Assembly: GCA_019429125.1 (NCBI GenBank)
Contig: JAHYJO010000008.1
Span: 1 to 54,514, forward strand
DNA length: 54,514 nucleotides
Direction: 5' to 3'
Source: Nanobdellati archaeon
GTDB taxonomy: Archaea; EX4484-52; GLR71
The translations under genes and the position numbers were made by a program. Shown here in pieces: positions 36,035 through 44,269 of this stretch; the stretch's first letter is position 1; each line of letters opens with the position of its first letter. The notes beneath the pieces are model-generated. The model was not told the DNA's origin. It saw only the letters and a program-made list of their open reading frames with translations, and did no database searches.

Positions 36035-36124
36035 TTAAAGCTAAAAGCTTTTAAATATTAAGAGACTAAATCATATTATAATAATTTAGTACAATTTCAT
36101 ATAATGATAAAGAGGAGAAGTCTT

Positions 36125-36469
36125 ATGGGATTTTTAAGTAAAATGATTAGTGAACCTGAAAACAATGATATAAGTGAAACAAATTATCTTGAAATTGATG
36201 AGATGGATTCATCACATCATGGAAAATTTATGATTCGTGTAGAAACACTTTCTGAATTTTCGGACACAAGCATAATTCAGGAATATGTACGTAACGGAGA
36301 TATTGTCTGGGTAAGAATTAGACCCTTAAAAGACAAAGATATAACAGAACTAAAAAGATCTGTTGACAGACTACGAAAAACTTGTATAGCAATAAATGGC
36401 GATGTTGCGGGTATTGATGAAGATTATCTTGTCTTGACACCACCTGGAGTAAATATACACCGAAGATAA
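36125..36469 (+). CDS. sepF: Archaeal cell-division protein SepF
   Basis: N-terminal amphipathic MGFLSKM, G.IV...I..LK..D..ELKR, GDVAGI...L.LTP. Confidence 0.88.
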   Translation: MGFLSKMISEPENNDISETNYLEIDEMDSSHHGKFMIRVETLSEFSDTSIIQEYVRNGDIVWVRIRPLKDKDITELKRSVDRLRKTCIAINGDVAGIDEDYLVLTPPGVNIHRR

Positions 36470-39171: not shown

Positions 39172-39444
39172 TTATTTTTTAAGAACTTTTTCAAATTCAG
39201 TTCCGAATTGTTCTATCTGGTCCTGTGTCCTTTTAATTGCAGCCATAATTGATTTCTTTGGATCTTTTGATTTCACAATCAGTCTTGGTGCACCCACATA
39301 CGGATGTGATTTCTCATAAGCTGCAAGAGATACTGACGAATCATCCCATAACGCTTTCCTCAAAAGATTAGGAAGAGTATGTCCACCATTATCAATCTCG
39401 ATAATTAATGTTTCTTTATCCTGTTTTTCAATCTTAACTTGCAT
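39172..39444 (-). CDS. rpoL: RNA polymerase subunit L (Rpo11)
   Basis: HTLPNLLR..L, AAY...HP, P.L. Confidence 0.9.
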   Translation of the reverse strand: MQVKIEKQDKETLIIEIDNGGHTLPNLLRKALWDDSSVSLAAYEKSHPYVGAPRLIVKSKDPKKSIMAAIKRTQDQIEQFGTEFEKVLKK

Positions 39445-39610
39445 TCCAATCACACACAAACCTATAAATAAATATTATATTCAACTTAGTATATATATCA
39501 ATACTTGATGTATTCATTTATATATACAGATATATAAACTAACCCAACAAATTTATATATGTTTGGACAATCTTTTTAAAAGTATCGTAGCTCTTAAATT
39601 ATTCTTATTA

Positions 39611-40732
39611 TTATACCTTAAAAGTATCATATATTTTAAGAATACTAGGACTTAACCCCGGTTTAACCTCATCAATCATCTGATAGAACAGTTTATTATC
39701 TATACAAAAGGAACCATTGACAACATAATCTATTGCTGCTATCTCTAAAACATTTGTGACAATACGCCTTATATCACGACCAGTATACCTTAAACCACCA
39801 CGTTCTTTATCTTCCATATAATGCACAATATCTTTAATGACAAGAGTAGGCATATAACCCTCTATCTGCTTAGTTATTTCAAGTTCAAATATAAACCCCT
39901 TCTCTTTTTTATCAGGTGGCCCAATATAAAGCATAGAATTAAATCTGCTCAAAAGCGCACCATCAATCAGATCAGGACGATTAGTTGCAGCAATAAGATT
40001 AATGTCAGCCTTACCAATACCATCAATCTGTGTAAGCAACGTTGAAAGAGTCCGGTTAGACACATGGTCATTGCTGTCCCGAACCATAGAAAGCGCATCA
40101 ATCTCGTCAATAAAAAGTACATTATTCTTATTCTCCTTAACTTTAGAAAAAATCATAGACAGGTTCTTGCTAGTTTCGCCATAATATTTAGAAAGTATAT
40201 TTGACGCATCAAGATAATATACATCCCCTTCAGGTATCTCGTTTGATAGCGCACCCACAAAAAAGGTCTTACCGCACCCAGGAGGACCATACATGAGAAT
40301 CGTATTTGATGCATTTATCTTAAAGGGCATGTCCCGAGTCATAGGATAAACCATATGCACCCTAAATTTCTCTTTTATATAATCATAGCCGACAATATCA
40401 TCAAACCAATAATCTGACTTGACTATTGCATCACCCACCCAAGAACCCATAGAATCCTCGGAATCAGAAACAGATATAGAATTACCCACACCAGAATATC
40501 CACAAGAATTACCGAATATGGAAAGCCCTAAATCCCATGCTTCTTTTTGAATATCCTTATAGCTTGCATAACCATTGTATCTCACATTGACATTATCTTC
40601 AAGCATTGCCCTCACAAAATAATCTTTTGCGATGTACATAAGTTTAAGGGAATGCAATGGCTCTGTGCTCCTAAGATCCCTGCTTTTAGCAAGAAAAGAA
40701 TTCCCTTTATCTATAAAAAGCTGTTCTAGCAC
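39611..40732 (-). CDS. Vps4/CdvC-like single-module AAA+ ATPase with helical (MIT-like?) N-terminus
   Basis: FDDIVG, VYP, YGPPGCGKT, SKYYGET.KN, FIDEIDAL, ATNRP..ID..L.RF, YTGRDIR, VKP....KIY C-terminal helix. Confidence 0.8.
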   Translation of the reverse strand: MLEQLFIDKGNSFLAKSRDLRSTEPLHSLKLMYIAKDYFVRAMLEDNVNVRYNGYASYKDIQKEAWDLGLSIFGNSCGYSGVGNSISVSDSEDSMGSWVGDAIVKSDYWFDDIVGYDYIKEKFRVHMVYPMTRDMPFKINASNTILMYGPPGCGKTFFVGALSNEIPEGDVYYLDASNILSKYYGETSKNLSMIFSKVKENKNNVLFIDEIDALSMVRDSNDHVSNRTLSTLLTQIDGIGKADINLIAATNRPDLIDGALLSRFNSMLYIGPPDKKEKGFIFELEITKQIEGYMPTLVIKDIVHYMEDKERGGLRYTGRDIRRIVTNVLEIAAIDYVVNGSFCIDNKLFYQMIDEVKPGLSPSILKIYDTFKV

Positions 40733-40744
40733 AGGCCATCACAT

Positions 40745-41428
40745 CTATTGGAGTGGTTCTTTTATGGGGACAACATTAACAAGACTGTAAGCATCCAATA
40801 TTTCCTGACTGTACACCTCAGGATTTTTTGATATGTCACTGAATATGCGATTAATATCCTCATCATATATATCAAAATCCCCAATCTCAGCCTGAGCGTC
40901 AAGCCTGTTCTCTTTTGACATCATATACCCCCTAAGCTGTATAGGCTCAGATAGATTATTGCCGTTCATTCTCTGCTTTATCTTTTCAAATCCCGATATG
41001 ACTTCACCGAGGCCCACATTTTTTATATCAGGATTAAGGAAATCCAATGCCTTCTTGTAAAGTAGATCCTTGCGCATGACATCTATATCAATCACCAGAG
41101 GCGTGTAATCAAAAACCCTTTGCTTATATATCTCTTTCTCCTTAGACAGCATATTTTCCTGCATCTCAAGCTTCTGCATAGACACTATATAAGATTTAGC
41201 CCTATCAACTTTCCCTTCATTTGTAAGTCTCCGTACCTGAAGAAAAAGCTCCTGCTTCTCAGCAACAATCTTATTTATTGCAGAATCGCATACTGCAGAT
41301 ATTCTTGACGCATTCTTCTGCTCCATCTTAAGAACATGCATATATTTTTCAAGTTCATTAACCATAACATCAATGCTCGGTTCTTGTTCAGCTTCAGTTT
41401 TCCCCATAATCCTATTAATTATATTCAT
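40745..41428 (-). CDS. ESCRT-III (Snf7/CdvB)-like coiled-coil protein
   Basis: N-terminal amphipathic MNIINRIMGK; hairpin KQELFLQVRRLTNEGKVDRAKSY like the CdvB core; acidic tail ending VVPIKEPL; 12 bp upstream of the AAA gene. Confidence 0.62.
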   Translation of the reverse strand: MNIINRIMGKTEAEQEPSIDVMVNELEKYMHVLKMEQKNASRISAVCDSAINKIVAEKQELFLQVRRLTNEGKVDRAKSYIVSMQKLEMQENMLSKEKEIYKQRVFDYTPLVIDIDVMRKDLLYKKALDFLNPDIKNVGLGEVISGFEKIKQRMNGNNLSEPIQLRGYMMSKENRLDAQAEIGDFDIYDEDINRIFSDISKNPEVYSQEILDAYSLVNVVPIKEPLQ

Positions 41429-41484
41429 ATTTTACCACCCAGCCCATAATTCCCAATCCAAAATCACAATCCCCATTCCCTAAT

Positions 41485-42222
41485 TCAATACGATGGTACA
41501 TAATCAAGCTCTTTCCAGAACTGCGCGGCCTCAATAAGCTTATCATGTGCATCTAACCCTTTTTCTTCCGCAACCGTATACTTTTCAGCCATCTGCGCAA
41601 CATCCTCAAGCGACCTGTTCACTTTGCTTATATATGATACTACTATATTTTTCCGGACAACATACCGTTCCATATCCAACAATTGTGACTCATAAGAATC
41701 AACAAGCCTTTTTTCCCTATCCTCCAGAAAATGATATGCAGACGGATTATTGTCTAAAACAGATACTTCATAGCCCTTGCTTGCGCCATCCAGGGACCGT
41801 AAAAGTTTCTTTAGGAAATTAAAAATACTCCATCCTCTCTCAACTTTACCGCAATTACCTTTCAACACACCCTCACTAATATCAAATCCATCATATGAAT
41901 CATTAGAATACATTATAGACCTTCCAGGCACACAGCTCAAAAACTGTTCAATCTGCGACCTATCCTTTGCACCAAGCACCATAAGCCGTGTATCAGGATT
42001 ATATGACACTTCAATACCATCCCTCCCGATAAGACTTGAGAACGTATACTCTTTTTTAACTTTTCCAGCATGACTTATAGCACTAGCACAATCCATATCA
42101 TATACACCTAAACGTCTTGAGAATAACGCAATAGCTGCATCAAACACATCATTGTCTATCTTGTCGGTATATACATCCAGACCGTCACATTTACAATATC
42201 CTACTGTTTTTGCGCGTAACAT
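41485..42222 (-). CDS. Hypothetical protein, first gene of the ESCRT-like operon
   Basis: Alpha/beta-looking N-half, internal amphipathic WSIFNFLKKLL, C-terminal coiled coil. Confidence 0.7.
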   Translation of the reverse strand: MLRAKTVGYCKCDGLDVYTDKIDNDVFDAAIALFSRRLGVYDMDCASAISHAGKVKKEYTFSSLIGRDGIEVSYNPDTRLMVLGAKDRSQIEQFLSCVPGRSIMYSNDSYDGFDISEGVLKGNCGKVERGWSIFNFLKKLLRSLDGASKGYEVSVLDNNPSAYHFLEDREKRLVDSYESQLLDMERYVVRKNIVVSYISKVNRSLEDVAQMAEKYTVAEEKGLDAHDKLIEAAQFWKELDYVPSY

Positions 42223-42332: not shown

Positions 42333-42650
42333 CTAACCAAACACTAAAAGATAAACTGATACAAATACCAAGCCAAAAAACATCCACAAGACAAATGTAG
42401 ACAGATTATCTTTGTGCATCTTCTTTATAACGCCCATGCGAAACACAGAGACTATCGTCTTATAGAAAGCTTGTGACGGAACTTTTTCATTATCAGGATT
42501 AATAGAATTCCCACAGGCATAAGGTTTCTTTGTTGCTGATGACACATCAGAATCAGTTTTTGCAAACTGATAAAACCCATAAGTAATCGCTGAAAACAAA
42601 ATAAAGATAAAAACCCAATCGTCAACCAAAAAAGACATTATATCAACCAT
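42333..42650 (-). CDS. MbhI-like membrane subunit of the Mrp/Mbh module
   Basis: TM helix, KPYACG, H..NLS.FVLW C-terminal TM; position after MnhD. Confidence 0.65.
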   Translation of the reverse strand: MVDIMSFLVDDWVFIFILFSAITYGFYQFAKTDSDVSSATKKPYACGNSINPDNEKVPSQAFYKTIVSVFRMGVIKKMHKDNLSTFVLWMFFGLVFVSVYLLVFG

Positions 42651-42664
42651 AACAACACCACATC

Positions 42665-44113
42665 CTAAATAATACCCAAAACAGCCTTGATATAAAATTC
42701 CCTATCCAGACCAGAACCTGAAATGATACCCATCAAACCAGTAAAATATCCCTGAAACACACCAAGCACAATACACAATATAACCAATATGACCATGACG
42801 ACCTTAAGATCATAATCTATCTTGACCACACCCGCATCTTTCCTGTTTGATAAAAATATCATATTTATCATTTTAAACGAATATGCCAATGTCAATACAG
42901 AGACAATCATTGCAACAAATGTAGCAATGGGGAATACTTCAATACCAGAAATATATATCAGAAGCTTGCTTGAAAAACCGTTTGACATAGGAAGTCCAGC
43001 CAATGCAACGGCACCCACAAGAGATGAAACAAAAAGTATAGGATTACCGAAACCTAAACCGCCCATCTTATCAAGATTACTTGTACCAAAATGTCTTATC
43101 ACAACATATGCTACAATAAAAAGAAGAATATCTATAATGACAAGATTGACCATGTGATACACAGCTCCCGTATATCCATACAGGCCAATCCCTAAAAGGA
43201 CATAACCAGTCTGCGATATTGCAGAATATGCAAGTAATTTCTTGAGGTTCTGTGTCTGCAGTGCAAGCACAGCGCCAAGCACCATTGTCAAAAATGAGAG
43301 AGCAATCAACAACCCCGAAATATTAAGATTACCAACAGTAACGACAAGCCTAAATATTGTATAAAGACCAATTATTGTCCCTGTTGCAGTAAACATAAGC
43401 CCTAAAGATAGCGGTGCATACCTTATGACCGAGGGTTTCCATGCATGGAACGGTGCAATTGCTGCCTTGAACATGAAACCAGAGATAAGCAACCCAAAAC
43501 CCACAATTGTTGCGGCAGTTGATGACACAGCCACTTTACTTGCAATGTCAGCCATATTCAAAGTTCCCAAAGACCCGTAAATAAAAACTATTCCTAAAAG
43601 TATAAGTGATGTGCTGAAACTTCCCATTATAAGATACTTGATAGATGATGCAATAGCTTTCTTTTGCCCAGTATAAGACACAAGCGCATATGACGCAATG
43701 CTCAATATCTCAAAGAATACAAAAAGATTAAATATATCCCCTGTCATTGCCGCCCCAAAAAGCCCTAATAAAAGAAGCATAAAAAGCGCATAAAATTCTC
43801 TCTTATCTTCATGTATCTCAGTCTTGCTTATGACAAGAGATGCCACCGCAACAAGGACCAAAAGTATACACACCATATAATTCAAGAAATCAACAGCAAA
43901 ACTAATACCTAAAGGTGGCATCCACCCTAACTGATAATATACAATAATCTTGTCAGAGATCAATAAAGGTAAATCAAGCAAAAGAAATATTGCACTTAAA
44001 CACACACCACCAGTCGCAATCATGAGATGATGATGCCTATGCCGACCACTAGTAATAGTTATAAGAAACACAGCCGCAAGCAAAACAGGTACAATAATAT
44101 TTAAATATGCCAT
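42665..44113 (-). CDS. mnhD: Na+/H+ antiporter subunit D (MnhD/MbhH)
   Basis: GWMPPLGI, TGDIFNLFVFFE, KAAIAPFH.W, KLLAYS.ISQ.GY, GLP..NGF.SK. Confidence 0.92.
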   Translation of the reverse strand: MAYLNIIVPVLLAAVFLITITSGRHRHHHLMIATGGVCLSAIFLLLDLPLLISDKIIVYYQLGWMPPLGISFAVDFLNYMVCILLVLVAVASLVISKTEIHEDKREFYALFMLLLLGLFGAAMTGDIFNLFVFFEILSIASYALVSYTGQKKAIASSIKYLIMGSFSTSLILLGIVFIYGSLGTLNMADIASKVAVSSTAATIVGFGLLISGFMFKAAIAPFHAWKPSVIRYAPLSLGLMFTATGTIIGLYTIFRLVVTVGNLNISGLLIALSFLTMVLGAVLALQTQNLKKLLAYSAISQTGYVLLGIGLYGYTGAVYHMVNLVIIDILLFIVAYVVIRHFGTSNLDKMGGLGFGNPILFVSSLVGAVALAGLPMSNGFSSKLLIYISGIEVFPIATFVAMIVSVLTLAYSFKMINMIFLSNRKDAGVVKIDYDLKVVMVILVILCIVLGVFQGYFTGLMGIISGSGLDREFYIKAVLGII

Positions 44114-44269
44114 CTTAAACACTTCAAAAAACTTCCGAAAGGAAGCTATCATATAGTTACAGATTTGTCCAATCATGTTAATATAATTATTCAATACGAC
44201 CATTCAACAAAAATTCAACAAAACTGCAAGACAAAAAAACAGCTCAACCAACCCATAAACTGCAATAAA

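Follow-up and report, generated by a model that had tools for sequence, protein, structure and literature searches.

Do archaea labelled DPANN possess a membrane-remodelling system of the ESCRT-III/Vps4 type? The question is raised by three tightly spaced genes in contig JAHYJO010000008.1 (assembly GCA_019429125.1), whose 54,514 nucleotides (nt) are the whole stretch of DNA analysed here and are called the window. The genes lie on its minus strand and are named A, B and C in the order of their transcription: A is an accessory gene of one genus, B encodes a helical protein, and C encodes a single-module AAA ATPase. An original prediction, made from the letters alone, had read the three genes as a highly divergent ESCRT-III/Vps4 system organized like the crenarchaeal cdvABC operon. 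Part of that proposal stands, in that B and C are linked across genera, C has a Vps4-like layout and finds its best curated profile in CdvC, and B lies close to PspA/IM30 in a language-model search, whereas the cdvABC analogy and a docking motif proposed at the end of B (VVPIKEPL) did not hold up, and the Pfam profiles Snf7, PspA_IM30, MIT and Vps4_C gave no match to the three proteins. The best single reading, to which we give an even chance of being right, is that B and C form a very divergent ESCRT-III-superfamily/Vps4-like membrane-remodelling module.

Passages in two reviews report that ESCRT-III or the ESCRT machinery was not found in DPANN archaea, one of them (PMC10117752, from 2021) in the words 'absent in DPANN archaea'. 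Literature searches on DPANN ESCRT-III, Vps4, CdvB and CdvC, by title and abstract start, returned no report of such a system, and the main text of a 2024 survey of archaeal ESCRT systems (PMC10936438) contains no mention of DPANN, Nanohaloarchae-, Aenigm- or Nanoarchae-, while its supplementary tables may list such genomes. Should B belong to the ESCRT-III superfamily, a DPANN lineage would be added to the known range of the system. The pair would then also reveal how much divergence ESCRT-III and the substrate-recognition domain of its ATPase can undergo without separation of the two genes, and would supply a candidate machine for membrane events that are poorly understood in episymbiotic archaea.

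Distribution and linkage of the gene pair

Our sample comprised 42 genomes of the phylum, which is here a single order: the source genome (1.16 Mb in 32 contigs, 93% complete), nine others of its family and 32 from seven other families. Database labels of the relatives of the source genome read Nanohaloarchaea, Aenigmarchaeota or 'DPANN group archaeon'; they are labels of the sources and not a classification of our own. A profile of B matched the source genome and eight of the nine other family members, and none of the 32 genomes of the remaining families. A profile of the N-terminal part of C (alignment A4, the first ~140 residues) matched all nine other family members and gave one weak match among the 32 genomes elsewhere. 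In a collection of 5.8 billion sequences we found nine relatives of B, the window's own counted, and the B-family profile recovered nothing beyond its own cluster from 1.84 billion cluster representatives. Metagenome scans with the B profile and with the ATPase subfamily of a third genus returned no relatives, and viral-contig scans gave no B relative and one generic AAA match.

Within the genus of the source organism, the genes are arranged as a block in the order membrane genes-A-B-C-rpoL-TFS-PCNA, which is complete or limited by a contig end at every locus examined; A-B-C were seen in seven of the eight genomes, and in the eighth (G004) the contig ends within a 31%-identical B. In a second genus (G008), a B homologue of 234 amino acids (aa), with a Smith-Waterman z of 9.2 and collinear over residues 14-217 against 8-217, precedes a 378-aa C homologue (36% identical) by 25 nt in a different neighbourhood, where the gene upstream of the B homologue is unrelated to A. 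In a third genus (G009), at a contig end, a C-family ATPase of the P0108 type has its start overlapped by a 242-aa helical protein, which resembles B in its hydrophobic/basic N-terminus and carries an acidic tail. Because a helical gene and the ATPase persist together across three genera in differing contexts, the conserved unit is a helical protein immediately followed by a C-family ATPase, and both the adjacency to rpoL and gene A are features of the genus. Taken as this unit, the pair occurs in nine of nine genomes of the family, spread over three genera, and in none of the 32 genomes of the other families. The helical partner gene always adjoins the C-family ATPase, its ESCRT-III nature being putative. 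The expected linkage in relatives was therefore borne out, with B or a B-like gene next to C in all three genera. Of the placement between rpoL and an mrp cluster, the rpoL-like and membrane-protein neighbours are present, in this genus only, and the two other genera carry B-C elsewhere.

Two other open reading frames (ORFs) were noted near the locus of the third genus, namely a 74-aa helical ORF just upstream of the B-like gene (L037:1373-1597:+) and a nearby 214-aa ORF rich in Lys, Glu, Thr and Pro with a similar hydrophobic/basic N-terminus (L037:2-643:-). One record titled Campylobacterales bacterium (L009) carries the archaeal A-B-C-rpoL-TFS-PCNA block at coordinates identical to those of contig C8 of an archaeal genome (G005), and its bacterial title looks like a binning or labelling error.

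The ORF list and its translations confirmed the predicted arrangement of three co-oriented, tightly spaced genes at exactly the predicted limits, with spacers of 56 nt between A and B and 12 nt between B and C. The motifs that had been quoted (the helical stretch of B, GPPGCGKT, SKYYGE, YTGRDIR, VKP...Y and the terminal VVPIKEPL) are likewise all in the translations. The start codon of C is GTG, and orthologues carry methionine at the aligned position. Against three relatives, A, B and C have no internal stops, and their ratios of nonsynonymous to synonymous substitution rates (dN/dS) are 0.15-0.27, 0.08-0.15 and 0.10-0.14, respectively. Given the absence of internal stops and the low dN/dS, A, B and C are genuine genes and not chance ORFs; purifying selection acts on each of them, most strongly on B (dN/dS 0.08).

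Anatomy of the helical protein and the ATPase

Where an N-terminal amphipathic helix and an acidic tail had been proposed for B, the hydrophobic moment is 0.57 over residues 1-11 and the net charge is -8 over residues 161-227. B-like proteins of all three genera begin with the same kind of N-terminal segment. On a crude propensity track, helix-prone stretches span about 18-70 and 75-109 and are followed by further short helices and the acidic tail. The break between the two stretches has the form Glu-Gly...Asp-x-Ala, with E71, G72, D75 and A77 invariant or nearly so, and Pro110 marks a further kink. In the tail, D198, I199, N202, Y206, A213 and Y214, all within residues 186-218, are invariant in 11 sequences. 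This anatomy is compatible with an ESCRT-III-type protein.

The terminal VVPIKEPL had been put forward as a MIM2-like motif. We reject it as a conserved element, as the last ~9 residues vary within the genus and between genera; the motif is absent from the other genera, and the conserved element of the tail lies upstream, at 186-218. A weak match to DUF7276 in 4 of 11 family members (E 0.0064, below the cut-off) was discarded as noise. A predicted complex of C residues 1-100 with B residues 161-227 gave an ipSAE of 0.00 in both runs, and the controls did not fold, so that this result speaks neither for nor against a contact.

The one positive signal for B came from a language-model feature search with a homologue that is 83% identical (P0004). 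Its nearest clusters were PspA/IM30, with a score of 0.91, although scores of at least 0.9 were reached by 4-10% of shuffled proteins. The query shared 181-182 of 256 features with these clusters, where at least 170 shared features are typical of true family members; 22 of the 30 hits fell in that set, and the ten best family-assigned hits all agreed. We take this likeness to PspA/IM30 as a lead towards the ESCRT-III superfamily and not a proof.

C is indeed the single-module AAA ATPase that had been predicted. Its AAA module matches PF00004 at 1.3e-32 (Pfam), and it contains the Walker A lysine K155, the Walker B pair D209/E210, a pore loop 1 with the residues K182-Y-Y-G185, in which both tyrosines are nearly invariant, the sensor 1 residue N251 and the arginine R263. 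K155, D209, N251, R263, K182 and G185 are invariant in the 13 sequences of the family. The module is preceded by a helix-prone N-domain of ~75 residues, in which Y33, Q62 and W66 are conserved across the family alignment. Judged from its sequence, C thus resembles Vps4 in layout: a linker joins a helical N-domain to a single classic AAA module.

Profile comparisons place the module nearest to CdvC. The best NCBIfam model for C is CdvC (133 bits, as compared with 113 for CDC48 and 110 for PAN), with residues 105-371 aligned to model positions 97-364 of 370, and over all 13 family members the best E-values were 3.3e-48 for CdvC, 4.5e-46 for PAN and 2.7e-43 for CDC48. When the whole of C was searched against the PDB with phmmer, two-module proteins came first by summed score, the first single-module chain was Sulfolobus Vps4 (4lgm, 110.4 bits), and the D2 modules of VAT and AFG2 scored 102.0 and 100.8 bits. 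The C orthologue of the second genus reached 19.3 bits with Vps4_C, short of the cut-off of 21.3. Aligned to VAT and AFG2, C has a two-residue deletion at the arginine-finger region. Vps4 and the meiotic clade typically show this shorter spacing.

Weighing the readings

A number of results, along with the shuffled-protein calibration given above, weigh against an ESCRT-III/Vps4 identity for the pair. None of the 11 members of the B family matched Snf7 (PF03357) or PspA_IM30 (PF04012) at E <= 10 (hmmscan), and B itself returned only noise from Pfam and NCBIfam. The Snf7 and PspA models gave nothing credible over the whole source genome, in a type of whole-genome search in which the Snf7 model stays under its cut-off even in Sulfolobus acidocaldarius. 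In the PDB, the B sequence alone, its profile and two divergent partners returned either nothing or only keratin and designed coiled coils, all at E >= 0.04. Alignment of B with E. coli PspA gave a probability of 3% in hhalign and remained at shuffle level in Smith-Waterman comparisons (z <= 1.3); here PspA was represented in hhalign by the single E. coli sequence, and of the 468 plasmid PspA records, 441 are at 90-95% identity and 15 are under 60% identical to E. coli PspA. An hhalign comparison of B with a Snf7-like protein of a sister family, described below, gave 0.1%. The core of B (residues 16-100) is neutral, not basic, and homology between B and the 242-aa protein of the third genus was not demonstrable (hhalign 0.5%; best pairwise z 3.7, to the G004 protein).

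Further adverse results concern C. Its 133 bits stand against a curated CdvC equivalog cut-off of 650 (NF041006). Pfam found no MIT domain in C, in eight N-termini of the family or anywhere in the genome, and no Vps4_C (PF09336) in C, the match in the source genome being to the Cdc48 homologue only. In favour of Vps4, archaeal Vps4/CdvC proteins took the top five of 11 PDB matches of the A4 profile (E 2.3e-4, 3.3e-4 and 0.12-0.16, with Cdc48 at 0.34 and Msp1 at 1.9), though the aligned part is just 28-47 residues of the linker and the module start, with the N-domain outside it. For the last 138 residues of C, AFG2-B and VAT D2 were the best matches (~30 bits per module), and no Vps4 was among the best 60 of 94. 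The second region of homology (SRH) of the family has just one invariant arginine (R263), an oddity. As B and C lie outside several of these curated family definitions, the pair is not to be filed under Vps4/CdvC, Snf7 or cdvABC.

These results bear most directly on an alternative in which a helical or coiled-coil protein peculiar to the lineage, such as a filament former, a scaffold or a regulator, is encoded by B and has no relation to ESCRT-III, while C, a classic AAA unfoldase, has B as its substrate or adaptor, so that their likeness to ESCRT-III and Vps4 would reflect general traits of long helical proteins and classic AAA ATPases. We consider this unlikely, although it is the likeliest of the alternatives. 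It is favoured by the negative outcome of all sequence and profile tests of B against Snf7 or PspA, by the weak matches of B to generic coiled coils only (keratin at E 0.04, V-ATPase subunit E at E 0.001, laminin), by the lack of a detectable MIT domain and Vps4_C in C, whose C-terminal part is nearest to AFG2 and VAT D2, and by a partner protein that changes beyond recognition from genus to genus. However, the language-model neighbours of B are consistently PspA/IM30 and not assorted coiled-coil families, and a conserved hydrophobic/basic N-terminus combined with an acidic tail is not general to coiled coils. Moreover, C is nearest to CdvC/Vps4 by curated profile and N-terminal boundary, and falls outside Cdc48 and PAN. 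If B were not ESCRT-III, the pair would still be a conserved and strongly constrained substrate/AAA-unfoldase module confined to one family.

Another possibility, which we find improbable, is that C is a Cdc48-like ATPase of protein quality control or complex disassembly, with A and B as substrate-recruiting cofactors and no involvement of membranes. Trees of AAA modules bear on this point. Besides the C family, they contained the Cdc48 and PAN of the source genome together with a double-AAA protein of divergent sequence, an AAA from a sister family, and one in three of the remaining database hits; the quick tree had 78 rows, and the careful tree had 42 after removal of the four proteins with the longest branches and of every second hit that was left. 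The C family forms one clade, supported at 96 in the quick tree and at 100/100 in the careful tree, and in the latter a 99/97 branch parts it from Cdc48 D1, Cdc48 D2 and PAN, which together with other available AAA modules were the only references in the trees. No single-module Vps4-like reference was found among the database hits of C, and all eight proteins examined carry two AAA modules. The separation of the C family from Cdc48 and PAN argues against a Cdc48-like role, as does the fact that the source genome already encodes a full two-module Cdc48 and PAN. A distribution limited to one family of the phylum would also be unexpected for core proteostasis. Set against this, Cdc48, AFG2 and VAT modules score close to Vps4, the Tyr-Tyr-Gly pore loop of C is the same as the form aligned in VAT D1, and no transmembrane segment was seen by eye in the translations of A, B and C, on which no predictor was run.

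The trees also drew in some outlying ATPases. On contig C22 of the source genome, the 520-aa ORF C22_+2_1272 encodes two AAA modules, which score 46 and 67 bits with the C-family profile; the protein is very divergent and has the longest branches in the tree. A genome of the sister-family genus that carries the Snf7-like protein (G024) encodes a single-module AAA ATPase of 360 aa (L038:3862-4944:+), whose N-domain is helix-prone and whose arginine region is of the Cdc48 type; in the tree it is a long-branched sister of the C family. The gene that overlaps and follows it (L038:4941-5666:+) encodes a multi-pass membrane protein with a winged-helix domain at its end.

Finally, an antiviral defence system or mobile-element cargo built around an IetA-like AAA ATPase would account for the matches of C to PADLOC IetA models (102.5 bits) and NCBIfam IteA (90.9 bits), yet we hold it to be very improbable, given that these scores lie under those of CdvC, Cdc48 and PAN and reflect the generic AAA core only, that neither A nor B matches a family in PADLOC or PHROGs and a protease partner is absent, that the viral-contig scans yielded no relative of B, that the block has a fixed position among housekeeping genes within the genus, and that purifying selection acts on all three genes.

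Proposed role, locus and known systems

Returning to the ESCRT-III/Vps4 reading, B and C would constitute a two-component membrane-remodelling module of this type that has diverged past sequence recognition. B would be a PspA/Snf7-like subunit that binds the membrane through its N-terminal hydrophobic/basic segment and polymerizes via a long helical hairpin, and C a hexameric classic AAA ATPase whose helical, possibly MIT-like N-domain docks on the acidic, conserved C-terminal element of B. By threading B through its Tyr-Tyr-Gly pore loop, C could then drive disassembly or turnover of the polymer. A would be a genus-specific accessory, perhaps an adaptor. The fuller proposition, that a DPANN-labelled family carries an unrecognized ESCRT-III/Vps4-type module with a polymer subunit and an MIT domain beyond profile detection, a role in vesicle release, membrane repair or the host contact zone of genome-reduced cells that divide by FtsZ/SepF, and a genus-specific first gene that encodes a new adaptor, seems to us possible, at somewhat less than an even chance.

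The genome also informs the cellular role of the pair. Three FtsZ/tubulin genes are present on other contigs of the source genome (two on C25 and one on C30), and a SepF gene lies within the window at 36104..36469 on the plus strand, ~3 kb from A-B-C (Pfam SepF, 50.5 bits, above the cut-off), so the organism has an FtsZ-SepF division set. In a recent review, DPANN archaea are described as dividing by an FtsZ-based mechanism (PMC7617429). Because the genome carries three FtsZ-type genes and SepF, a role for B-C in division is unlikely. For ESCRT-III systems in FtsZ-containing archaea, a survey suggests vesicle formation or sorting rather than division (PMC10936438), and by analogy with the roles of ESCRT-III in such archaea (PMC10936438, PMC7619361), vesicle formation, membrane repair or cell-cell/host contact is more likely for B-C.

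Gene A is an accessory confined to one genus: the database search returned four relatives, the window's own counted, and A was not found in G004, G008 or G009. In an alignment of seven sequences (A6), residues 1-100 are conserved, the middle is variable, and the acidic helical C-terminal part is conserved, including the last dozen residues. A has no family, PDB, PADLOC or PHROGs match, and hhalign found no relation to B. Searches of A and six homologues for a PRC-barrel or CdvA gave none, with only noise at E >= 0.11, and by these searches A is not CdvA-like. With a first gene of this kind, restricted to one genus, and a host genome that has FtsZ and SepF, the analogy with cdvABC falls, and the locus is not a cdvABC operon. 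An Atlas model of an A homologue, itself of low confidence (pLDDT 0.46), has weak structural neighbours (TM 0.32-0.42) with RnlA-toxin, RNase H N-terminal or DUF3568 domains, all of which we take to be TBP-like folds. Makarova et al. 2024 (PMC10936438) describe DUF3568 as a TBP/helix-grip domain that belongs to an accessory protein of archaeal ESCRT loci in the 'Main' clade. A TBP-like/helix-grip fold for A is thus a weak lead from modelling.

Coordinates of the three genes and their parts are collected in Table 1. The genes are preceded by a spacer of 110 nt and followed by one of 151 nt. Upstream of A lie membrane-protein ORFs at 42650..42333 and 44203..42665. Downstream of C, an RNA polymerase L/Rpb11-like gene occupies 39459..39172 on the minus strand (Pfam RNA_pol_L_2 PF13656, 1.4e-12), followed by a TFS-type zinc-ribbon gene (PF01096, 3.8e-18) and then PCNA (Pfam). 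The spacer between C and rpoL (39460..39610, 151 nt) is very AT-rich with repeated TATATA runs; it is a candidate site for the rpoL promoter, which may make A-B-C a transcription unit separate from rpoL.

Table 1. Position and reading of genes A, B and C and of their parts in the window
Feature	Position	Strand	Description
Gene A, 245 aa	41485..42222	-	N-terminal alpha/beta-looking domain 1-100, variable linker 100-150, acidic helical C-terminal part 155-245; genus-specific accessory
Gene B, 227 aa	40745..41428	-	Helical; candidate ESCRT-III-superfamily (PspA-like) polymer subunit
B residues 1-11	41396..41428	-	Short hydrophobic/basic segment, possible membrane-binding helix; hydrophobic moment 0.57
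B residues 70-76	41201..41221	-	Gly-containing break between helix-prone stretches, candidate hairpin tip; from Pro/Gly positions and crude propensity track
B residues 186-218	40775..40873	-	Acidic, best-conserved element over the two alignable genera; candidate docking element for the ATPase N-domain
Gene C, 373 aa	39611..40732	-	Single-module classic AAA ATPase
C residues 1-75	40508..40732	-	Helix-prone N-domain (alignment), MIT-like in size and position
C residues 76-104	40421..40507	-	Linker: acidic (net -3), Gly/Ser-rich, variable in length and sequence
C residues 105-373	39614..40420	-	AAA module with Walker A, Walker B, pore loop 1, sensor 1, one SRH arginine, small domain and terminal helix

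A possibly more canonical ESCRT-III protein, judged by its Pfam match, was seen elsewhere in the DPANN-labelled lineage. A 193-aa protein of a sister family (f5; genome G013, L043:1420-2001:-, also L045-L047) has Snf7 as its top Pfam hit (E 4e-4, 20.5 bits, cut-off 27.3; profile positions 4-147 of 171) and possesses a hydrophobic/basic N-terminus and an acidic tail. With this query it was found in all four genomes of its genus and in none of the 38 other genomes of the phylum. No AAA gene adjoins it in L043, and one genome of its genus also has a separate AAA ATPase with a helical N-domain. The occurrence of a Snf7-like protein and an AAA ATPase in this sister family suggests that the ESCRT-like components of the phylum merit a systematic structure-based survey.

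Among known systems, the crenarchaeal cdvABC operon shares with our locus the order of accessory gene, helical protein and AAA ATPase, and CdvC provides the best curated profile for C. In contrast to that operon, the first gene, A, gives no CdvA/PRC-barrel match and does not occur at the loci of the second and third genera, B has no Snf7 match or recognizable winged-helix C-domain, C reaches 133 of the 650 bits of the CdvC cut-off, and the host genome has FtsZ (three copies) and SepF.

The modules of Cdc48, VAT and AFG2 (D2) reach comparable bit scores over the AAA module of C, with which they share the motifs of the classic clade. Unlike these proteins, C has one module, no Cdc48 N-domain, the shortened arginine-finger region and a separate clade.

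B resembles PspA/IM30 (Vipp1) in its length of about 220-230 aa (E. coli PspA has 222), its hydrophobic/basic N-terminal segment, long helices and acidic C-terminal part, and in its language-model neighbours; it differs in having no profile or pairwise similarity to E. coli PspA, and PspA_IM30 was found in none of the 42 genomes of the phylum. The linkage of bacterial PspA or Snf7 genes to classic AAA+ ATPases is a theme described in a previous study (PMC11237479). The bacterial partners presented there have two AAA domains or other architectures, whereas C has a single module.

The minimal archaeal ESCRT systems of Thermoplasmata, as set out by Makarova et al. (2024, mBio, PMC10936438), consist of Vps4, ESCRT-III and one lineage-specific protein. 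In those systems ESCRT-III and MIT are recognizable by sequence or model, and in B and C neither is; the locus further differs in that A has no beta-barrel or winged-helix match and that the host lineage is DPANN-labelled. What the two have in common is a set of three genes made up of a single-module ATPase, of Vps4 type there and putatively so here, a helical protein of roughly 200 aa and a lineage-specific extra, in a host that has FtsZ.

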